From a virus (lineage: Duplodnaviria; Heunggongvirae; Uroviricota; Caudoviricetes): a DNA stretch of 64,000 bases. The stretch lies in the IMG/VR virus record IMGVR_UViG_3300045988_154997, positions 1 through 64,000 of that record; one strand, 5' to 3'. Below the pieces are notes generated by a model. That model did not search any database. It saw only the letters and a list, made by a program, of their open reading frames with translations, and was not told the origin of the DNA. The translations under genes and the position numbers were made by a program. Positions 3,479 through 43,757 of this stretch are shown here, in pieces (within the stretch, counting starts at the first letter, position 1; every line of letters begins with the position of its first letter).

Positions 3479-4072
3479 TTACCACTTGTTGTAAATAAAA
3501 CCAATGTCTTTCTTGTGAGGCGTATCGGCTGCGGAAAAAGCTGCGATCTTCGCGAGTCGATCACATATTTCATTTTCACGATGCCCGGCGTGACCTTTAA
3601 CCCACTTCCAGCGAACATTATGTCGACTTGCGTCCTCATCCAGACGTTTCCACAGATCAACATTCTTTACCGGTTTTTTATCAGAAGTCATCCATCCATT
3701 ACGTTTCCACCATTTCATCCACTGTGTCATGCCGTTTTTCAGATACTGGCTATCAGAGTGCAAAATAACGTTGCATGGATATTTCAAACGCTCCAGCCCG
3801 ATAAGTGCCCCCATCATCTCCATGCGGTTATTGGTGGTGCTATGAAAACCATCTGAGAACTCGCGTTCCTCACCACGATACTGGAGAACTATACCGTAAC
3901 CGCCCGGGCCACCCGGATTTTTAAGGCAAGAGCCATCACTGTAGATTTTTACGGTTTTAAGCTGGGGATTGAACTCTACGACAGGCGTTGTGGGATTGGT
4001 GCGGGGAGAATTTTTGTTTTTGGCTTTTTTGCGAGTTTTTGCTTGCGATCGGGATGGTGTCTTCGTCGTCAT
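3479..4072 (-). CDS. rnhA: Ribonuclease H (RnhA-like)
   Basis: Core [17 protein letters not shown]...[11 protein letters not shown]...HSDSQY...KPVKNVDLW...[17 protein letters not shown] aligns closely with E. coli RNase HI; start moved to ATG at 4072 (AGGAG RBS) rather than the ORF-track start at 4126. Confidence 0.8.
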
Positions 4073-25432: not shown

Positions 25433-26506
25433 TTACTCTTCTACTGACTCGGTGGGGTTGTCTTTTGCTCTTCGGTCGTCGATTGCCTGCAAAGCCGCAA
25501 TGATTTCAGCCAGTGGCTTCTCCCGATACATCTCAACGATCTGCGATTTGGTGTATTTCTTGTCACCAATTTCAACTCGCCCGCTGGCGTTCTTTGGCAG
25601 GTATCCTTCTTCCAGCATGTACTCGACGAGCGATTCGATAACGTCGAGGCCACGAGTAGGATCGAAGTAGAATTTCCAGGTGCATTTGCCATACGGTGGT
25701 GCAACTTTGTTTTTGATGCATTCTGCGCCTACGTCCTGGCCGATCTTCTCTTTACCATCCTTCATCACCGATGCACCAAGACGGATACGTACAGAAGCGT
25801 AGAACTTCGGTGAATCTCCACCTGGCGACGTAGTAGGGTCGCCAAACATTACACCGATTTTTGTGCGAACCTGATTCAAGAAGATGATGCAGGCGTTGTA
25901 TTTGCGTGCCCACAAAGCCAGAGTAGGGAAGTTCGCACTCGTCGCACGAGCCAGTGCCGTATTGTCGTTCATGTTTAGCTGATCTTTGTCTTTGGCAGTG
26001 CCTTCAGCCATCTTTTCGAACTTCTCGGCTTTGGAGTTCGGAACCATAGACGCAAGAGAGTCAGCCACGATACAGATAGGTGCTGATTCGGGGATAAGCT
26101 CTTCATCACGAACCAATTTAAGTATTGTGCCGATCAACTCTACAGAGTCTTCGAAGGTATCTGGCTGCTTGTATACCCACTGACCGTCATCCTCATCTGC
26201 GTTCAGGCCATTGGCTACAGCCAGGCCAACGTCAAAACTGTTTTCATGATCGAGGAATACCGCCAGACCATCTTGTTTCTGTGCGGAGATCATTGCTGCT
26301 GTTGCAAGGAACGTTTTCCCTGCACTTGGAGGGCCGAATACTTCGACGATACGACCACATGGGAAGCCGCCATCGTAACGACCAGAAATAGCTTTGTTTA
26401 ACGGTGGAAAGCCTGTATCAATCCAATGAGTTACTTTCTGAATTTCGTCGTTGCTACCGATTTTCTTTTTCAGAGCAAGTGCCAGTGCGGATTTTCCTTT
26501 TGCCAT
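25433..26506 (-). CDS. RecA/UvsX-like recombinase
   Basis: GRIVEVFGPPSAGKTFLA Walker A in RecA-like context (compare E. coli RecA GRIVEIYGPESSGKTTL). Confidence 0.75.
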   Translation of the reverse strand: MAKGKSALALALKKKIGSNDEIQKVTHWIDTGFPPLNKAISGRYDGGFPCGRIVEVFGPPSAGKTFLATAAMISAQKQDGLAVFLDHENSFDVGLAVANGLNADEDDGQWVYKQPDTFEDSVELIGTILKLVRDEELIPESAPICIVADSLASMVPNSKAEKFEKMAEGTAKDKDQLNMNDNTALARATSANFPTLALWARKYNACIIFLNQVRTKIGVMFGDPTTSPGGDSPKFYASVRIRLGASVMKDGKEKIGQDVGAECIKNKVAPPYGKCTWKFYFDPTRGLDVIESLVEYMLEEGYLPKNASGRVEIGDKKYTKSQIVEMYREKPLAEIIAALQAIDDRRAKDNPTESVEE

Positions 26507-28925: not shown

Positions 28926-29357
28926 TCAACGGGGAGTAATAAAGCGTTCAGAGCCTAATCGCTCTAATTCAACGATGGCCATCTTTGACGCCTGAACGAT
29001 CATGTCTCGGCGATGCGAAAAGGCGGCGACAGCATGTTTGTATATGTCTGCGATGTGCCGTGCTTCATCCAACTTCTGCCGTTTAGACAGATACTGTGGG
29101 TTTGTTTTAACCTTAGCGTCCAGTACAGATTCGTTGAACTTAATGCCGTTCATACTCAAGTTCTTACGCTCTGTGTCGTATAGCTTTGCTTCAACAGCTT
29201 CAAGGTTAAGTTTTGCTTCTGCGACACTTCTTTCTGCATGGGCGAGTTTTGAGCCATATTCCATCAACAGGCGGGGTTGTCTACGCCAGACTTCTTCCAG
29301 ATTGTCTCGGTCAAACTCGAGATCGGACATGATTTTTTCGTATATATTGGTGCTCAT
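28926..29357 (-). CDS. hypothetical coiled-coil protein
   Basis: 143-aa ORF. Confidence 0.5.
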   Translation of the reverse strand: MSTNIYEKIMSDLEFDRDNLEEVWRRQPRLLMEYGSKLAHAERSVAEAKLNLEAVEAKLYDTERKNLSMNGIKFNESVLDAKVKTNPQYLSKRQKLDEARHIADIYKHAVAAFSHRRDMIVQASKMAIVELERLGSERFITPR

Positions 29358-29601
29358 TTTGATAGATTCTCACTTATCATGATGTATTGATTATAGAGCT
29401 TAAATTAACGCTAATCCAAGATAGACCGTTATGCTATCTGCTCGAACAACCATTTCTTAGGGCTTGTTAATTGCAGGAGTTTCTCCTATTGTGTTCGTGG
29501 ATTTAATCGAAAGAAATATGGGTTTTGAAAAGGATAGAATCTTCATGTTTCCGCACAGCATTTATCATTAATTATTCAAATTAAAAGGAAATATTATCCT
29601 C

Positions 29602-30192
29602 ATGTTTGATATTTATAATTTATTAAAGCAAATAGCAGAGAACACGAAACCTGACCATTCTGCTATTTGGATTGCTGTAATATCTTCAATATCAGCTATT
29701 GCAGGCGCTGCTATTGGTGCATATTTGTTATATCGAGGCACAAACGAACAAATTAATTCTGCTGCTGCTATTGAAGATAAAAAATTAAAAGCAACTATAA
29801 TTACCGCAGAAAGACTTCGTTGGCTTCAAGAGCTAAGGTCAAGAAGTAGTGAGTTTTATGCGAATCTCGATATGAATTACAACTTATTAAAACGACCGAT
29901 AAATCCGCAGGCAATCCCGACATATCAACAAGCTGGGGACGAACTGGCGAAAATTGTAATGATTCAATGCAATCAGATAATTGTATTGCTTAATCCTAAA
30001 AAAACTCATCAGCAAACTATTTTTAATAAATGTAATGATGCACTTAAATTTTTCATGGAATGCGTCGAAGAAAAAAATAATGGTAATCTGAACTTTGATG
30101 ATTCCAAGTATGCGGAAATAAAAAACGATTACTTTAATGCTTTAACTGAAATAGGTATTGAAACTTGGAAGCAGATAAAAGAGTTAAGTTGA
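29602..30192 (+). CDS. AT-rich membrane-anchored protein, unknown function (accessory)
   Basis: 196-aa plus-strand ORF with N-terminal TM segment AIWIAVISSISAIAGAAIGAYLLY; visibly low GC; own terminator. Confidence 0.5.
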   Translation: MFDIYNLLKQIAENTKPDHSAIWIAVISSISAIAGAAIGAYLLYRGTNEQINSAAAIEDKKLKATIITAERLRWLQELRSRSSEFYANLDMNYNLLKRPINPQAIPTYQQAGDELAKIVMIQCNQIIVLLNPKKTHQQTIFNKCNDALKFFMECVEEKNNGNLNFDDSKYAEIKNDYFNALTEIGIETWKQIKELS

Positions 30193-30253
30193 TGTCTTAT
30201 TGGCGGAAGATAATTAATAACTATCACTACACGGAATCTGCAATTAATAAATG

Positions 30254-30280
30254 AAACCCGCGATTGGCGGGTTTTTTATT
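30254..30280 (+). terminator. Rho-independent terminator (CCCGC-gattg-GCGGG + TTTTTT)
   Basis: Read directly, 60 nt after the 29602..30192 stop. Confidence 0.7.
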
Positions 30281-30410
30281 TATGCGACTTTCTTACCCAA
30301 GATGTTGGATAGAGTGACTCTGGTCTAGCGTTTCAGCCTGTACTATCTCACATCGCCAATCTTGTTTACTTTCATAAACTCTTTGGCCTCCTTTATGGTG
30401 TTTTCTTTAT

Positions 30411-33400
30411 TCATTTGCTAATAGTCTCCGCTACCTCTGCCAGAATTGCTTCCAGCTTTTCGCCTTCCTCTGGGCGAAAGTACAAAATATTCGGGTTAAA
30501 TCCGTAGAAAACAGTCACATCCAGCTCCGGCAGATACTCTTTGCGTCCAACCAGGTCGGATGGTTTGATCTTGTTGTTGAAGAGCGACGTTGCCCGGCTG
30601 CCACACGTCAGCACATAGGTCGGACGCACCAGATTGATCTCTTCACGCATAAAGTCGGTGAACTGGCCGATCTCGTCTTTGGTGTAGTCTTTTTCTTTGT
30701 CTTTAACCTTCTTGCAAACGCCTGTGACATAGAGATCGCCCATGCGTAAATCTCCAGCCGTCAATAGCTTGGCCTTAAAATCGTCGTATCCGTTCTCCAT
30801 AAAGTAACCGGTTCGAGCATCATTGCCGTTCGCATTGTCCAGAATGATCATGATTTTCGGCTTAATACCAATGCTGGGGCGGATTAGTTCATCACCTAAG
30901 CCCATTTCAGCCGCCATCCGTGTCATGAGCACGTTAATCTCAGCCGAACGTTTGGGGTTCATCTCAAACGGACGTGAGGCTTTAACTGCATCTATGACAA
31001 GGTTTCCCATCAATTCAGCCTGGTCGCGGAGGCGCTCTGGATCAGTTGCTGGCAGACTACCTGGCTCGATGGATGCAAACGCCCCTACTTTTTGCAGCGA
31101 TTCGCGCACTCGACTATTACAGGCACGTTTCTCGACAGCTTCTTCGAATTGCGCAAGTGACTCGAATTTGCCGCCAACCTTTTCTCGCGCTCTCATGATG
31201 GCCTGGCAGCCATTCTCAGAACACCCCTTCACAGCAGAGAAGGGCGCATACAGCACCTGGCTGCCATCTTCAAGCGTGCGGATCTCGATTCGGTTAGATG
31301 ACATGTTAACGTCTGGTGGCAATACGCGAATACCATAGGTCAGCGCATCTTTAACCAGCCCCTGGTGTTTATCTTCGCCAAGAATAGTGAGAGCAGCAGC
31401 GAAAAACTCTGCGGGATAATGAGTTTTCAACCACATAGATTGATAACTGATTAAGGAGTAAGCAACAGAGTGTGATTTGTTGAACTGGTAGGCACCATTC
31501 TTTTCGAATGCGGTCCAGATCTCCTTCGCTTTCATCTCTGATAGCCCTGGATGTGACGCTGTAACGCGTACTGCGTTTATAGGTAGTTTTGCACCGAACT
31601 CAAGTGCCTCTTCGACAGTTTTCAGAGTTCCGTCTTCGCATTTAAAATGTTCCGCACGGTGAATGCGCTGTGTAGTGCCATCTTCCAGCTCAACGTCGAT
31701 CCAGCCAGCTTGAGCCTGAACGATGAACTTCTCACCCATGCTCTTCATTTTCTCCATGTCTTTTTTGCCGATCGCTTTACGAACGCCGTCAGCTTCAGCC
31801 ATTGTGAAGCCGGCAAGCAATCGAGTCGCGTTCATCGTCTGTTCCTGATAGAGAATCACGCCATTTGTTTCTGCGGTAAGTTCATCAAGAACGGGGTGTA
31901 ATGATTCCGGCGTCATAAAGCCTTTGGCGACAGAAACATAATCATCCAACATGCCTGACTGAATTGGCCCCGGCCGGAAGAGCGCAGTCGTAGCAACGAC
32001 CGTTTTAAAGCTCATTGGCTCAATTCCACCACCTAAATCTTTAAGCAGCTTGCGCATTGGGCCTGATTCAAGCTGGAAAACACCTTGAGTGTACCCAGCA
32101 GCAAAACCATCCAGCACCTTGCGATCTTCAAGAGAAATGGCATCAAGATTGATATCCTCACCTGTGTTCTCTTTAATGTAGCGTTTTGCACTATCGAGCA
32201 AATCGAGAGTCGCCAGGCCAAGTACGTCCAGCTTAATTAGGCCCATAGCCTCGCAGTAACGCTTGTCAAATGCGATACAACGCGCGTCACCACGTCGTTC
32301 AACCGGTGTTCGTTCTGTCAGAGGAACACCTGCTACGATCATCCCTGCCGCATGTCTACCATAGCCACGCATAAGGCTTTGTAACTTGCAGGCTGCATTG
32401 AATGCATCAGGATATTTTGTCGCGTATTTGTCGAGGCTTGCCAGTTGTTCGCGCAGCTCTTCCAATGGAAGGCTATCATCCTCGACGTTCTTCAGTTCTT
32501 TTGATACCGCCATATCTGCGGACTCCACACCATAAATACGAGCGGTGTCACGTAGTGCAGAGGCCGCGCCCAGGTAGGTGAAGTTCGGAATGCCTGCAAC
32601 GTAATCTTCGCCGTAGCGTTCATTCAGATACTCGATCACCTCATGGCGACGTGCCTGGCTGAAGTCCAAGTCCGCATCTGGCAAGTCGAGACGCTCAGGG
32701 TTGATGAAACGTTCAAACAGAAGACCGTGACGGATAGGGTCGACGTTGGTTATGCCTATGCACCATGCCACCAAAGAGCCAGCGGAGGAACCACGACCAG
32801 GCCCGACAGGAATGCCAGTTTCACGGCTGTGATTCATCAGATCGCGTACCATCAGGAAGTAACCACAAAATCCCAGGCGAGTAAGCGTGTCCATTTCGTA
32901 CTTAAGTCGCTCAACATAAACCCTGTTCTCAGAAGCCGGTGGTGTGTAGCCAAACTCTTTTGTGGTAAGACGTTTACGCAGCCCAGCAACGGCCAGTTTC
33001 ATCAGCGTTGCAGGCTCGTCGTCTGCCATCTTTGGCAGTGCTGGTGGCAATTCATGCCAGCGCCATGTGCAGGCATCGATAATGGTATCCTGCGTTGTTG
33101 AGGCCATTGCGGCTGTTACCGGCACATCCATGCGAACGGAGAAGGCTTTCAGCGCCTCAAGGAGATGGCGGCGACCATTGACGGCGTTATCTCGCTGGTG
33201 GGGGATACGCAGACGATGCGGCTGGTCGATTTTGATGTTGTTCGTAACCATGTGCGCAATGTCTTTAATGTCTGCATCGTCGATCGATTCGTAATAAGCG
33301 GGATAGAACGCTACTGGCTCTATTTTCAGTGCGCTGGCGACTTTCATCGCCCGGACGTTAATCTGGTCGTAGAATGGGGTAGGGTGCGGATAAACCACAC

Positions 33401-33929
33401 TATAGAAGTTGTTTTTTCCACCCGCTGTAATCAGTGAGCTTATGATTTTTGCAAAATCGTTGCGTTGGTACACGCTACCGATGTCGGCAGTGAGCAGGAT
33501 GATGTTGCCTTTGGCATATGTAGAAACCAACTGTTCGAGCGAGAGACGCGGTACAAAGTAGAACTGTTCTCGTGTGTTGGCCGCCGTCATTAGTTCGCAG
33601 ATGTCTCGATATCCCTGCTCATTTTTAATTAGAGCGGTAAAGGAGTAGTTCCGCCCACGCTCTAATGATTCCATACATCCCATAGACTCTTTAGCAAGTT
33701 TAGCCCGGTGCTCGTATGTGGGATCATCAACAATGTTTAGTTTCACACCACAAATAACCGCCATGTCGTCACCAGCGGCACGTTGTAGTGGAATAACACT
33801 CGCAATATTCATGCTATCTGCCGAAATTACAGCGGTGTAGCCAGCTTCTCTGGCAATCTTCACCGCGTTTTCTGCTTTTAGAGCCGACTCCCCAAGAGAG
33901 AAGTCAGTTCGAACCATCAGAGCCTTCAT
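30411..33929 (-). CDS. dnaE: DNA polymerase III alpha-type (DnaE-family) replicative polymerase
   Basis: 1172-aa ORF; N-terminal PHP-like region (VRTDFSLGES...), central regions GxGRGS...SLV and C-terminal regions typical of DnaE. Confidence 0.85.
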   Translation of the reverse strand: MKALMVRTDFSLGESALKAENAVKIAREAGYTAVISADSMNIASVIPLQRAAGDDMAVICGVKLNIVDDPTYEHRAKLAKESMGCMESLERGRNYSFTALIKNEQGYRDICELMTAANTREQFYFVPRLSLEQLVSTYAKGNIILLTADIGSVYQRNDFAKIISSLITAGGKNNFYSVVYPHPTPFYDQINVRAMKVASALKIEPVAFYPAYYESIDDADIKDIAHMVTNNIKIDQPHRLRIPHQRDNAVNGRRHLLEALKAFSVRMDVPVTAAMASTTQDTIIDACTWRWHELPPALPKMADDEPATLMKLAVAGLRKRLTTKEFGYTPPASENRVYVERLKYEMDTLTRLGFCGYFLMVRDLMNHSRETGIPVGPGRGSSAGSLVAWCIGITNVDPIRHGLLFERFINPERLDLPDADLDFSQARRHEVIEYLNERYGEDYVAGIPNFTYLGAASALRDTARIYGVESADMAVSKELKNVEDDSLPLEELREQLASLDKYATKYPDAFNAACKLQSLMRGYGRHAAGMIVAGVPLTERTPVERRGDARCIAFDKRYCEAMGLIKLDVLGLATLDLLDSAKRYIKENTGEDINLDAISLEDRKVLDGFAAGYTQGVFQLESGPMRKLLKDLGGGIEPMSFKTVVATTALFRPGPIQSGMLDDYVSVAKGFMTPESLHPVLDELTAETNGVILYQEQTMNATRLLAGFTMAEADGVRKAIGKKDMEKMKSMGEKFIVQAQAGWIDVELEDGTTQRIHRAEHFKCEDGTLKTVEEALEFGAKLPINAVRVTASHPGLSEMKAKEIWTAFEKNGAYQFNKSHSVAYSLISYQSMWLKTHYPAEFFAAALTILGEDKHQGLVKDALTYGIRVLPPDVNMSSNRIEIRTLEDGSQVLYAPFSAVKGCSENGCQAIMRAREKVGGKFESLAQFEEAVEKRACNSRVRESLQKVGAFASIEPGSLPATDPERLRDQAELMGNLVIDAVKASRPFEMNPKRSAEINVLMTRMAAEMGLGDELIRPSIGIKPKIMIILDNANGNDARTGYFMENGYDDFKAKLLTAGDLRMGDLYVTGVCKKVKDKEKDYTKDEIGQFTDFMREEINLVRPTYVLTCGSRATSLFNNKIKPSDLVGRKEYLPELDVTVFYGFNPNILYFRPEEGEKLEAILAEVAETISK

Positions 33930-39596: not shown

Positions 39597-39804
39597 ATGA
39601 CAATCACCGAGTTACGCCGATGCACTGTATAAGTAAACAGTATATTAGGCATAGATTCTTATAGGATCAAGAGTAAAAGTAACTCATTTTCAGTAATGAT
39701 TCCATACATAGTAGGTATGGAATCATTGGGGGGCGATTTTTTTGAATCTATCTTTTCGAACGGAGGGGTTGGCTTCACTTTTATCTTCATCACCTAAAAG
39801 GTAA

Positions 39805-40794
39805 TTGATTTACTTGAAAATGGCTGGTTTTATAGTATTGTCATGCGATCGCTGCAACAGGATAAGAAAAATGATAAAAGAGACACCGGAAGTCAACACG
39901 CTATCTGAGTTATTAGGGGCTACGCCTCCCAAACCTCAGCTAGTAGTGACGACTAAAGGTATTGATTTAGGTCTGGATATCTCCCTCGGAGATTGGAATA
40001 ACTCTTCATTATTATCACGACCTTCAGCTTTGTTAGCAATTGAGCATGGGGAAAATTTATTTGAACTCATGGATAAAGAGTTAGGTCTTGTTGGTATTAA
40101 TGAAGAAGGAGTGATCAAGTCAAACATCATTATCGAACTAGATCCCCATAAAACAACTATGAGAATATTAGGTAAAATTGCGGAAGCACTCATTGTTGAA
40201 GAATGTGAAAAAAACGCGAAACAAAATGAAAACTGGGCATTATTAGCAAAGAGATATACCCCTTTCACAGATAGTTTGTCTAATTATAAAGCTGTTGGGA
40301 CTGGACTCAACTATACGAAAATTAACTATCCTACTAAATATCAACCTAATGATACTCAACGGGACATTGTGTGGATAGACAAACGAGACCCACTTTCTCA
40401 ATTACTTATTTCTGCTCCAACGTCGAATTCAGGTATACAGGCTGGAATTCAAGTGAAGGTCAGTGCAAATGGTCTTAACTATCTATCACCAATGGATTTT
40501 TCTAGCAGAAGATATGAGGTCCCTATTGTTTACTTTGATTTAAATAATGATTTTTTTGAAATTCAGATGAAGATAGTGAACTCAGGAATTGATTCGGTTT
40601 ATGGAATGGATTATCACCGTGGTAGAAACATTTCTCCTGAAATACATGAAAAACTATGTGCATATTATAACCTTATATACTCCATTATCATTGGTGATAT
40701 GAAATTAGAGGCTCTGTTACTAAATGAAGAGGCACTGAAAGGGTATGTGACTGAGATTAAAGATAGACAAGGTAAAAGAATAATCGTGACGTGA
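39805..40794 (+). CDS. AT-rich hypothetical protein (accessory, unknown function)
   Basis: 329-aa plus-strand ORF immediately after the integrase; no motif recognised; true start may be an internal ATG. Confidence 0.45.
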   Translation: MIYLKMAGFIVLSCDRCNRIRKMIKETPEVNTLSELLGATPPKPQLVVTTKGIDLGLDISLGDWNNSSLLSRPSALLAIEHGENLFELMDKELGLVGINEEGVIKSNIIIELDPHKTTMRILGKIAEALIVEECEKNAKQNENWALLAKRYTPFTDSLSNYKAVGTGLNYTKINYPTKYQPNDTQRDIVWIDKRDPLSQLLISAPTSNSGIQAGIQVKVSANGLNYLSPMDFSSRRYEVPIVYFDLNNDFFEIQMKIVNSGIDSVYGMDYHRGRNISPEIHEKLCAYYNLIYSIIIGDMKLEALLLNEEALKGYVTEIKDRQGKRIIVT

Positions 40795-40986
40795 AAACCT
40801 AAACTGTAAAGGCAACAAAAGGTGAAATAATAACTCATTAAAAGCACATTGTGTGAAATTTTAATCTGATAATTCATATATCGGAAGGGATTTTAGATAT
40901 TTTTAATATTTATAACTGTCCTTTTCATAGATATAGTTGATTTGAGCGCACACTTTCATGTAAAAAGCCGCCTAAGCGGCTCTTAA

Positions 40987-41232
40987 TTATAATGTACTCA
41001 CCAGAGCGGCGAATTCCGTATAGCCACCGATAGATTCGCCATTTACGAACACCTGCGGTATGGTCTCCACCGGCTTGCCAACCAGGGCGCTCAATTTCTC
41101 TTTGTCTATCCCAGCAGACACAATATCGATGTATTCGTAATCGCCAAAACCGTGACCGTGAAGCTGCTTCGCCAGCTCGACCGCACGTTTGCAGTATGAG
41201 CAGTTATCTCGTCCATAGATAGTGATCGTCAT
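40987..41232 (-). CDS. Glutaredoxin (NrdH/Grx-like)
   Basis: 81 aa, active-site CSYC, thioredoxin-fold length. Confidence 0.75.
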   Translation of the reverse strand: MTITIYGRDNCSYCKRAVELAKQLHGHGFGDYEYIDIVSAGIDKEKLSALVGKPVETIPQVFVNGESIGGYTEFAALVSTL

Positions 41233-41521
41233 TGCTTTGCCTCGTTATGCGCTTCGCTGGGGAACGTGTAGCGGTTAGTGAAAGAGCTGAGGTGGTAGTG
41301 CTCGTGAATGTATGGATTTGACTTCTGCACCTGACGAGATGCGCGACGCGCATGTTTACATTTATTTCCCATATTGAGTCCTTTCAAGTGAGTATCCGAA
41401 AGAACTATACAGTTAACGTGCGTAAAAAGTAAGTGCTTACCTATCATTTATTGATAGAAGAATAGCCGCCTGTCGTGTGATACTATTTACAGAACTAAAC
41501 TGGCTTTCCACAAGGTGTAAA

Positions 41522-42343
41522 ATGACTATCCTTGAAAATCCTGATGCGAATGTTGAATCTGTTTATAGTCTTCATCCAACCACGTTGTTTCATTTTACAA
41601 AAAACGAAGATGCTTTCTATAGCATATTGGCTGAGAAATATTTTAAACCATTTCTTGCTCGCGAGGAAATAAGAGGAGTCGGGGGACGCAGGAGGTTTGC
41701 AGTACCAATGGTATCGTTTTGTGACATAAAACTATCACAAATCAGAGATCATAGCGGAAAATATGGAGAATTCGGTCTTGGGCTAACTAAGTCTTGGGCG
41801 GAAAAGAAAGGTCTACACCCAGTTCTATATATGAATAAGAGTAGTGAAATATTTTCTAAATACAATGCCAGAATTCGACTTATTAAAAATAAGTTGGTGC
41901 CGCTTTGGAAGGCTAGAGGAAATTTAGATACCAAAAACAGAATAGAGTTTGAGAAATTGAAAGCAGAATATTCTGATCTATATAATTTACTGCGTTATAT
42001 GAAAAATTACAGAGGCAAGCTAGAGCGAAAAGATAATAAAACAATAGAGAATTATATATATGCAGACGAGAAAGAGTGGCGTTATGTGCCAGCTCCTTTT
42101 ATTGGTGATTTATGGCCTAGTCTGAGTTTGGAGCGTGTTATCACTTCTGATGACAAAGCAAAAATTAGCTCAAAATTTTCAAAGTTTGGCATTGATTTTG
42201 AGTTCAATGATATAAAATATATACTTATACCTAAAGAACAACATATCCAAAAGCTAATTAACTTTCTCTCAGGTTTAGATGGATTTGAATCTTCAATTAT
42301 TAGCAAAATTCTGACCATGGATAAAGTAAAGCAAGATTTTTAA
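41522..42343 (+). CDS. DUF2971-like protein (candidate defence cassette, gene 1)
   Basis: RBS AAGGTG-N4-ATG at 41522; motifs LFHFTKNEDAFYSIL and HSGKYGEFGLGL resemble the LYKY.../...HKG.C.GF signatures seen in the clearer DUF2971 protein at 55116..55835; AT-rich. Confidence 0.45.
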   Translation: MTILENPDANVESVYSLHPTTLFHFTKNEDAFYSILAEKYFKPFLAREEIRGVGGRRRFAVPMVSFCDIKLSQIRDHSGKYGEFGLGLTKSWAEKKGLHPVLYMNKSSEIFSKYNARIRLIKNKLVPLWKARGNLDTKNRIEFEKLKAEYSDLYNLLRYMKNYRGKLERKDNKTIENYIYADEKEWRYVPAPFIGDLWPSLSLERVITSDDKAKISSKFSKFGIDFEFNDIKYILIPKEQHIQKLINFLSGLDGFESSIISKILTMDKVKQDF

Positions 42344-42369
42344 TTTTTGGTTTAACGGGAGCCTAATTA

Positions 42370-43581
42370 GTGTCAATATTTTTAAGCGAAAAGGAAATGC
42401 AAAATTGGATAATTGACAAATTATCTGATCAAGATGGATTATATAATTCAATCATCAATATTGATAAATTAAATGAATTTAATCCGAAAAGACCCGAAGA
42501 GAAAAAAATTAAGGAGAGTTATCAGTTTTGTTTAAAGAACATAACATTGTTACATTTAATGACAGATGATGAGAATATCTCAGCAACAAAATCTGAGATA
42601 TTAAGACCTGATGTCGTTGCTTATTCAACAGAGAATGAATCCTTAGTTCTTATTGAGTTAAAAAATTTTTCAACACCAACAAGGGAAGCTGGAACTGAGC
42701 TAGTGGCATATGCTGCGGAACTAAAAAGTTACTTGTCATACTTGTCTGATGGAGATATTACCAATGTACTTATATCACCTGACTGGCCACCTTTGGTTAG
42801 ACACTTTATTTTTAATATGATCGTGTGGCAGAAGAAAAACTTTCTATGTTTAGAACCTTGCTATGATTTACAAGGTAACGTATCACTTACTCCTTTAGAT
42901 ATTAATAAATTAGTTATTGCGGAAGAAGCACTCAAGTTCTCATTTCGTCATCTTGGCGGGTTTCATATATGTTTGTATGATGATGAAATGTATAATCAAC
43001 CGACTTCCACTTCTCGTTTACATTCGAAATTGAATGTTATTAAAGCCAGCATGGCAAAAATGTCCTCAGACGGTGAAAAGACTAATAGCCATGGGTTTGC
43101 TATTTTATGTAGAAATTTGAACGAGAGAACTTTAGCACCATATACGATTACTCTAGTTAATGTTTCTGCGTTTTCTTCCATAGAGCGATACTTTCATTCG
43201 CCACAAATATCCAATGCTTCTCAACTCCCTAGAATAGGACAAAAAATTTATGACATTTACACTCATTACCAACCATCAGGTTTTGGGGCATCAATGTCGA
43301 AAATTTACAATTCTGGGAGGGCATATTTAGAAAAAATTAATTGCAAGCCGCGGATCGAGGTTATAGACACCTGGGATGTATTGCAAGTACATACACATGC
43401 GCCTTATATGGAAATGGTTCATATTGAAACGTGGGGAGTTTTTAAAGAAAAATTGATTGAAGGTCTAAATGAATGTTATGAGGATGAATATTACACACCT
43501 GATTTTAACGATGTAGATTTTTGCATGGTGTGTATTGAATCCTTAATTGACCAGAATTATGAATTTATAAAACTTTTTTGA
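42370..43581 (+). CDS. PD-(D/E)xK nuclease-like protein (candidate defence cassette, gene 2)
   Basis: GTG start with GGGAG RBS; N-proximal RPDVVAYSTENESLVLIELK fits D...E-x-K restriction-endonuclease-like motif; rest unrecognised. Confidence 0.45.
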   Translation: MSIFLSEKEMQNWIIDKLSDQDGLYNSIINIDKLNEFNPKRPEEKKIKESYQFCLKNITLLHLMTDDENISATKSEILRPDVVAYSTENESLVLIELKNFSTPTREAGTELVAYAAELKSYLSYLSDGDITNVLISPDWPPLVRHFIFNMIVWQKKNFLCLEPCYDLQGNVSLTPLDINKLVIAEEALKFSFRHLGGFHICLYDDEMYNQPTSTSRLHSKLNVIKASMAKMSSDGEKTNSHGFAILCRNLNERTLAPYTITLVNVSAFSSIERYFHSPQISNASQLPRIGQKIYDIYTHYQPSGFGASMSKIYNSGRAYLEKINCKPRIEVIDTWDVLQVHTHAPYMEMVHIETWGVFKEKLIEGLNECYEDEYYTPDFNDVDFCMVCIESLIDQNYEFIKLF

Positions 43582-43584
43582 AGA

Positions 43585-43608
43585 AAAGGGGCCGAAGCCC
43601 CTTTGAAT
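43585..43608. terminator. bidirectional hairpin terminator (GGGGC-cgaa-GCCCC) closing both the plus-strand cassette and the minus-strand tRNA operon
   Basis: Read directly; T-run TTTTCTTCAAAAAA on minus strand, weaker T-run on plus. Confidence 0.6.
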
Positions 43609-43679
43609 ATTGCGCTGAAAAAAAGTGTTGCTAGGATGTTAGCAAGCTATGGTTAAGAACGTCTGCCGTAATTGTCAAT

Positions 43680-43757
43680 CACAGCGTTGAGCGGTCTGGT
43701 TTATGTTAGCGGAGTCTTAATCGAGTTGATTAAAAGGCCAAACCGCTCAACGCTGTG
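43680..43757. repeat. perfect 16-bp inverted repeat (CACAGCGTTGAGCGGT / ACCGCTCAACGCTGTG) with 46-nt loop, abutting the tRNA-Ser 3' end
   Basis: Read directly. Confidence 0.6.

Follow-up and report, generated by a model that had tools for sequence, protein, structure and literature searches.

Introduction

Phage morons such as those of lambda and HK97, the defence hotspots of P2 and P4, and the accessory regions of phage-plasmids share a common layout: a discrete insert between backbone genes, on the opposite strand and with deviant G+C, followed by a terminator. In moron and defence hotspots, sister genomes have defence or toxin-antitoxin (TA)-type genes in the slot, or nothing. Small membrane-anchored proteins encoded by stand-alone genes on mobile genetic elements (MGEs) include HK97 gp15, T4 Imm, P22 SieA, lactococcal Sie2009 and Deva (BrcWGS21), and lactococcal AbiP joins an N-terminal transmembrane (TM) anchor to a cytosolic domain. 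Here we describe a locus that recalls all of these: a plus-strand open reading frame (ORF) at 29602..30192, starting with ATG and encoding 196 aa, within a 64,000-nucleotide stretch of viral DNA (Caudoviricetes; positions 1 to 64,000 of IMG/VR record IMGVR_UViG_3300045988_154997, referred to in full as the window). An earlier note, made from the letters alone, had read it as a moron-like gene for a membrane protein with a possible part in superinfection exclusion (Sie) or abortive infection (Abi).

The organisation of the locus is that of a textbook moron, and neither the sequence nor the fold of its product places it in a described Sie, Abi, TA, holin or defence family. Two features set it apart from other morons, namely that its terminator is shared backbone sequence and not part of the insert, and that no clear promoter was detected. 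It also differs from lambda/HK97-type slots in being carried by a plasmid prophage, in a replication/recombination module and not beside tail or lysis genes. Small, membrane-anchored and MGE-encoded, the protein resembles gp15, Imm, SieA, Sie2009 and Deva, and its relatives include integron cassettes, as in the case of Deva; unlike these five, however, it is predicted to consist mostly of a cytoplasmic four-helix bundle, and no sequence or fold similarity to them was detected. With AbiP it shares the layout of an N-terminal anchor, a cytosolic domain and a single gene on a mobile element, although no PADLOC model for Abi proteins matches it. Judged from its context, we put the probability that the protein has a defence or exclusion function of any kind at about 0.5.

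Results

The 196-aa gene is cargo in a slot between uvsY and dnaE

The features of the locus are as follows (window coordinates).

28926..29357, minus strand: UvsY-like recombination mediator gene, 143 aa, left backbone neighbour (ORF; annotated "UvsY recombination mediator" in phage Cyrano)
29395..29390, minus strand: candidate -10 element TATAAT of uvsY, abutting the slot on its left side (seen in the sequence itself)
29396..29601, plus strand: cargo-specific upstream region, 206 bp (alignment boundaries against relatives)
29602..30192, plus strand: coding sequence of the 196-aa protein, a predicted bitopic membrane protein of orphan family phrog_24982
30253..30281, plus strand: terminator hairpin and T-run, right edge of the slot (fold calculation; alignment with SSU5)
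30281..30410, minus strand: remnant of a DUF7740 gene (blastn against pHCM2)
30411..33929, minus strand: DnaE, DNA polymerase III alpha subunit, 1172 aa, right backbone neighbour

The surrounding minus-strand genes encode RecA, a 5'-3' exonuclease, a gp32-like single-stranded DNA-binding protein (SSB), the UvsY-like mediator and DnaE, and the ORF map thus agrees with the earlier description of a plus-strand gene amid minus-strand replication genes. The same description had called the flanking backbone genes convergent, which is incorrect: uvsY and dnaE both lie on the minus strand and are co-directional, while the cargo gene is transcribed away from uvsY and towards dnaE. The low G+C noted for the gene was recovered, at 0.33 compared with about 0.50 in the flanks. 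In 300-nucleotide windows, G+C across 29400..30300 is 0.31-0.37, against 0.45-0.53 on both sides, and at third codon positions it is 0.25 in the cargo gene and 0.515 in dnaE (overall G+C 0.50).

By sequence similarity, the window is an E. coli phage-plasmid of the SSU5/pHCM2 type. A 1-kb region around the gene is 99.8-99.9% identical to eleven non-mobilizable E. coli plasmids of ~72-113 kb and 86% identical to pHCM2 of S. Typhi CT18, and the flanks match SSU5, PhiR41_1, Cyrano and Klebsiella relatives. The flanking uvsY sequence was found in 218 of 5426 complete E. coli genomes, always on plasmids. Sixteen of these 218 elements carry the 196-aa gene, which is also present in S. Typhi pHCM2. 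In sister elements, the slot holds other genes or none, and all slot cargo lies on the plus strand:

Empty (~126 bp): PhiR41_1 and two E. coli plasmids
SSU5_055/054, matching PADLOC PDC-M06A/B, a candidate system (HicAB-like; 1e-21 and 6e-31): SSU5
HicA/HicB-like genes: Cyrano and pRM9975-1, in the latter together with CspG (HicA-like gene, helix-turn-helix (HTH) gene and CspG)
321-aa protein with a DUF4365 nuclease domain, matching a defence-associated restriction endonuclease (REase) model at 2e-10: other E. coli plasmids
196-aa gene: pHCM2 and this window

The slot has sharp boundaries. The left one falls at 29395/29396 in several variants, and the right one at ~30247-30271, in or beside the terminator. 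Moron-like organisation, as proposed in the earlier note, is therefore well supported by patchy presence, clean boundaries, alternative cargo and foreign composition, and we are highly confident that the gene is horizontally acquired cargo in a uvsY-dnaE recombination hotspot. Synonymous divergence (dS) from pHCM2 is 0.43 for the cargo gene compared with 1.95 for the flanking uvsY and 1.0 for dnaE; since the cargo value lies far below those of the flanks, the cargo was exchanged, by recent recombination, between Salmonella and E. coli phage-plasmid lineages after the backbones had diverged. The ratio of nonsynonymous to synonymous divergence (dN/dS) is 0.20 in the comparison with pHCM2 and 0.08 in that with the Vibrio copy, low values which indicate that the gene is under purifying selection.

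To the right of the slot, the DUF7740 gene is intact in pHCM2 (147 aa; Pfam DUF7740) and in SSU5 (SSU5_053), and reduced to a remnant in the window. By blastn, window 30393 corresponds to position 4018 of the pHCM2 locus and window 30386 to 4320, a deletion of ~301 bp with an 8-bp overlap at the junction, and the remnant region has no ORF of at least 40 aa. An E. coli plasmid with the DUF4365 cargo shares this right flank, being homologous from 30271 onwards through the DUF7740 remnant; cargo thus seems to have been swapped on a shared flank.

Terminator and upstream region

The earlier note had placed a strong intrinsic terminator downstream of the gene, and this is borne out. The hairpin, at 30253..30275 and 60 nucleotides past the stop codon, has a 9-bp stem with five G-C pairs and is followed by TTATTTAT; it has a minimum free energy of -18.3 kcal/mol (z = -4.25), a stability that no sequence among 200 shuffles reached. 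That the terminator is the gene's own, as had also been claimed, does not hold. Window 30247..30393 aligns at 89% with SSU5, and because SSU5 has the terminator with a different cargo, we regard it as shared backbone sequence. It is roughly bidirectional and lies between the cargo gene on the plus strand and the DUF7740 gene on the minus strand.

The 206 bp upstream of the gene are 95% identical to pHCM2, compared with just 86% for the ORF, and are absent wherever the slot is empty or holds other cargo. A regulatory role for this region is possible. By eye, a weak sigma-70-like candidate (8/12 matches) can be picked out, with TTGTTA at 29464..29469, a 17-nucleotide spacer and TATTGT at 29487..29492. 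Searching 29300..30450 against Rfam gave only a sub-threshold match to a Trp leader, caused by the terminator. The region also contains two palindromes (AGATAG-N9-CTATCT at ~29419..29439 and AGGAG-TTT-CTCCT at 29475..29487) and a 17-codon upstream ORF at 29518..29571, with a reading frame that pHCM2 retains.

The left edge of the slot is also the upstream edge of a perfect minus-strand hexamer, the likely -10 of the uvsY-ssb-exo-recA operon, and relatives with an empty slot read TGnTATAAT at the uvsY -10. As the slot edge abuts this -10, each cargo variant supplies a different -35 region, and cargo may alter expression of the recombination operon.

Relatives are single-gene modules in diverse mobile contexts

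The protein matches phrog_24982 in PHROGs (E 6e-139), which is listed as of unknown function. An exhaustive HMMER search of 1.84 billion representative sequences returned just 94 clusters at 50% identity, spanning Gamma- and Betaproteobacteria and Verrucomicrobia. None of 50,697 phage records gave a tblastn match, so that the gene is absent from the deposited phages among them. Pfam, NCBIfam and PADLOC searches with the protein and family members gave only sub-threshold noise (YfbR-like, 17 bits against a cutoff of 25.9); in PADLOC, one relative, P0131, had only a chance-level match to Cmr6 (E 0.0076). A second-round profile search built on 44 diverse members reached no Pfam-annotated relative, the profile search of PDB sequences gave no match at E <= 10, and a literature search on the protein accession, PHROG identifier and locus tag found no mention.

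Homologues are always single-gene modules: across at least 14 contexts, their neighbours are unrelated to one another, save in closely related prophages, and nucleotide alignments with the copies in Vibrio, Pseudidiomarina and Thiotrichaceae extend no further than the ORF. In no context is a homologue a backbone, structural or lysis gene, so that what the earlier note had named as counting against its reading, conserved backbone homologues with structural or lysis roles, does not occur. Upstream ORFs of 206-217 aa, found in Vibrio and two other contigs, were considered as a partner gene and rejected, being mutually unrelated.

Several of these contexts are mobile elements. In Pseudidiomarina, the homologue lies between attC sites (TAACAA...GCGTTA after each ORF) in an array beside intI fragments and downstream of glmS; it is a bona fide integron cassette. 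Two betaproteobacterial metagenome-assembled genomes place it one or two ORFs from an intI-type integrase (PF13495; in one case also PF00589), with imperfect inverted repeats directly after the homologue. The window copy has no attC-like site that we could find, and its homology to the cassette copies stops at the ORF ends. Elsewhere, in Enterobacter and two IMG/VR contigs, umuDC and tail-fibre genes adjoin the homologue where it lies at the end of a prophage; it is also found in a Proteus island with a P4-like integrase, a call read from N-terminal sequence only, and in an integrative conjugative or mobilizable element (ICE/IME) of Vibrio fluvialis with a relaxase, a type IV coupling protein and ToxN nearby. 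Exclusion of conjugative entry, which this last element suggested, was rejected as a general function, since most contexts are without conjugation genes.

Defence-type genes recur next to the homologues. In a hand-picked sample of 10 neighbouring proteins, PADLOC identified PDC-S06 (4e-281; Trabulsiella), PDC-S33 (RelA/SpoT-type), PDC-M66A/B (HipA_2 and DUF3037) and an Aga-type REase. Further neighbours are AAA_15 (beside PDC-M66A/B), GmrSD_N with HEPN, SNF2 with DUF1156, MmeI_TRD and an EcoRI methylase. On three soil or freshwater metagenome contigs, the homologue is followed by a 281-aa protein with a DpnII-MboI/Aga-type REase domain and by a 190-aa secreted protein, while the upstream genes differ; these may form a lineage-specific three-gene module.

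Predicted topology and fold

The protein is divided into the following parts.

29602..29664, plus strand: residues 1-21, conserved amphipathic N-terminal helix (LLxQIAxNT), predicted to be periplasmic
29665..29733, plus strand: residues 22-44, predicted TM helix with a ladder of small residues
29734..30189, plus strand: residues 45-196, predicted cytoplasmic four-helix bundle (AlphaFold2 model)
29809..29838, plus strand: residues 70-79, ERLRWLQELR, the family signature

An N-terminal membrane anchor, as first proposed from the sequence, is likewise found by topology prediction, which gives a hydrophobic helix at residues 22-44 and a positive-inside bias: the mean number of lysines and arginines is 1.0 in the 15 residues before the TM helix and 3.4 after it. 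The N-terminus varies within the family. In a subfamily of ~260 aa, it is swapped for a signal peptide and a segment with two cysteines, and some members instead carry an N-terminal extension of three additional TM helices or of a soluble domain with one TM helix. The charge bias and these N-terminal variants place the bundle in the cytoplasm, and the protein is probably a bitopic inner-membrane protein with its N-terminus outside and its C-terminus inside (N-out/C-in). No extra domain could be recognised in the longer relatives (P0067, P0075, P0093 and others).

Within the TM helix, positions 25, 28/29, 31/32, 35/36 and 39/40 are glycine, alanine or serine in 68-95% of the 44 diverse members, a pattern predicted to be of the helix-packing, glycine-zipper-like kind associated with oligomerisation. 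In the signature ERLRWLQxxR, R71 is invariant across the same 44 members, and W74 and R79 are kept in at least 95%. The AlphaFold2 model, based on an alignment of 32 sequences, has a mean predicted local distance difference test (pLDDT) score of 82.8, with 86-96 in most of the bundle. It consists of a short N-terminal helix (residues 4-14) followed by helices 19-97, 106-128, 135-159 and 167-194, so that the TM helix is predicted to run on into the four-helix bundle.

Foldseek searches of the PDB and BFVD returned only generic helical bundles, none at E <= 0.001. The best matches were to the ligand-binding domain of Tar (E 0.016, TM-score 0.47-0.56), a similarity that is generic for helical bundles. 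As in the 4HB_MCP domains of Tar and Tsr, the TM helix continues into helix 1 of an antiparallel four-helix bundle. In contrast to those receptors, there is no match to Pfam 4HB_MCP, a single TM helix is present, the bundle is predicted to be cytoplasmic and no signalling output domain follows.

Discussion

A candidate single-gene anti-phage factor

Superinfection exclusion or abortive infection, the functions first suggested for this gene, are consistent with its relatives being integron cassettes, with their defence-island neighbours and with the defence-type hotspot it occupies. The cassette context has a precedent: about one third of the unknown-function cassettes of mobile integrons that were tested protect against phage, and about one third of the protective cassettes have TM helices, including Deva, which interferes with injection of the T7 genome (bioRxiv 10.1101/2024.07.02.601719). 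On the favoured reading, the protein would be a self-contained single-gene factor against phages or other mobile elements, expressed by the resident element and protecting the host cell. It would sit as an oligomer in the inner membrane, where the cytoplasmic bundle, or the variable periplasmic N-terminus in longer relatives, would sense a phage cue upon infection; the TM helices would then rearrange and compromise the membrane, and the infection would abort. Tentatively, we propose that it is the founding member of an unrecognised family of single-gene anti-phage proteins of the inner membrane (N-out/C-in, with a glycine-zipper-like TM helix and an ERLRWLQxxR four-helix bundle) that moves among integron arrays, prophage ends, ICEs and phage-plasmid hotspots, and that it may provide superinfection immunity for pHCM2 and related E. 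coli phage-plasmids while being missed by defence finders.

Several points weigh against a defence function. No known family of defence, Sie, Abi, holin or toxin proteins was found to be related to the protein by sequence or fold (Pfam, PHROGs, NCBIfam, PADLOC, PDB and Foldseek), and PADLOC-DB v2 matched the window protein and two divergent relatives to none of its families; DefenseFinder 1.3.0 reportedly finds no system in pHCM2-like elements (bioRxiv 10.1101/2025.09.12.675607). For MGE cargo, neighbourhood is poor evidence of function, the sample of PADLOC neighbours was small and chosen by hand, CspG occupies the same slot in a sister element, and integron cassettes and islands hold many non-defence genes. 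The four-helix bundle is without an evident catalytic or pore-forming signature. As for expression, no promoter upstream of the gene passes a strict sigma-70 scan of the plus strand, and a gene of 33% G+C could be silenced by H-NS in E. coli. One metagenomic fusion (P0040; DUF4062-TM-half bundle) would imply the opposite topology if real, but we discount it because it ends prematurely on a 1.3-kb scaffold.

Should the protein act in defence, its mode is a separate matter. An Abi-like, membrane-permeabilising mode is on balance unlikely when taken singly, and we lean to it slightly because three features suit a general system better than a phage-specific block at entry: the packing motif of the TM helix, the constancy of the cytoplasmic domain and the occurrence of homologues in chromosomal defence islands. 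Nearly as likely is a block at entry, in which the protein would bind a host inner-membrane component, or the incoming ejection or tape-measure proteins, and stop DNA translocation without cell death, in the manner of HK97 gp15, T4 Imm, P22 SieA or Deva. A predicted inner-membrane protein with a conserved helix facing the periplasm would suit this mode of exclusion, as would carriage by temperate elements, prophage ends and phage-plasmids; the secreted two-cysteine segment of the ~260-aa subfamily suggests an outward part of variable specificity, and Deva provides a precedent. Yet the bulk of the protein, the best-conserved part included, is predicted to be cytoplasmic, its taxonomic and contextual range is wider than the narrow, phage-specific spread typical of Sie proteins, and homology to any Sie family was not found. 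Overall, we consider an entry block rather unlikely.

Alternative functions

Outside defence, the protein might serve host adaptation as a membrane-stress, envelope or regulatory factor, for example a tethered adaptor by which a cytoplasmic partner is sequestered; another example would be an orphan immunity protein. This would fit the presence of cspG in the same hotspot, the many non-defence functions of integron cassettes and islands, and the absence of matches to defence profiles; many regulators are bitopic proteins with a helical domain in the cytoplasm, and one family member weakly resembles ZapG-like proteins. However, varied defence genes recur beside homologues in unrelated taxa and in the slot of sister elements, and a family as rare and patchy as this one (94 clusters) suits conflict genes better than housekeeping adaptation, which leads us to regard this explanation as improbable.

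Plasmid maintenance would require a membrane toxin with an unannotated antitoxin or antisense RNA, taking the place of the HicAB-like modules that fill the slot in SSU5, Cyrano and pRM9975-1. The element is a plasmid prophage of low copy number, and the region upstream of the gene is unusually conserved relative to the ORF, both of which would agree with addiction. Against this, the module is a single ORF, with no second gene or conserved partner in any context. Distant copies share no homology beyond the ORF, and hence no conserved locus for an antisense RNA accompanies it; Rfam finds nothing relevant, and a 196-aa protein with a predicted folded soluble domain is unlike type I toxins. We therefore consider addiction very improbable. 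A backbone role in lysis or structure (holin, antiholin, spanin or injection protein), to which only the N-terminal TM helix on a phage-derived element points, is effectively refuted by presence and absence, as the gene is missing from 202 of the 218 related E. coli elements and from SSU5, sits amid replication and recombination genes of the opposite strand, and has homologues in integrons and chromosomes without phage genes.

Implications for pHCM2-like elements

SSU5/pHCM2-type phage-plasmids are common in E. coli, S. Typhi and Shigella, and are usually called cryptic. If the proposed defence or exclusion function is true, pHCM2-like elements would have a selectable phenotype, and a very compact (0.6 kb) single-gene membrane system would join the catalogue of defence systems. 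The family would be a concrete case of one gene shuttling among integron cassettes, prophages and phage-plasmid hotspots, and the gap between uvsY and dnaE would be marked for the mining of further systems. Without a phage phenotype, the gene would merely be another orphan cargo gene, uncharacterised membrane morons being common.

Other variable loci in the window

The most AT-rich part of the window is an island at 41501..43700, where G+C falls to 0.27. It corresponds to the following feature.

41477..43581, plus strand: two ORFs in a mostly minus-strand backbone

The product of the first ORF, 288 aa, is AbiGi (PADLOC 5e-47, Pfam 5e-25). The locus is a second cargo island, with a known system for abortive infection, and the element's AT-rich plus-strand cargo therefore includes at least one recognised defence system. 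The second ORF, 403 aa, had no match and may encode an AbiGii partner. A further AT-rich island at 39801..41000 (G+C ~0.31) holds a 329-aa plus-strand ORF at 39805..40794; neither Pfam nor PADLOC matched it, and it may represent further orphan cargo.

Within the recombination module itself, the RecA gene of the window (25433..26506, minus strand) is uninterrupted and encodes 357 aa. Its counterpart in PhiR41_1, Cyrano and pDETEC87 is 2340 nucleotides long and annotated with a LAGLIDADG homing endonuclease (intein), so the recA intein is a presence/absence polymorphism among sister elements.

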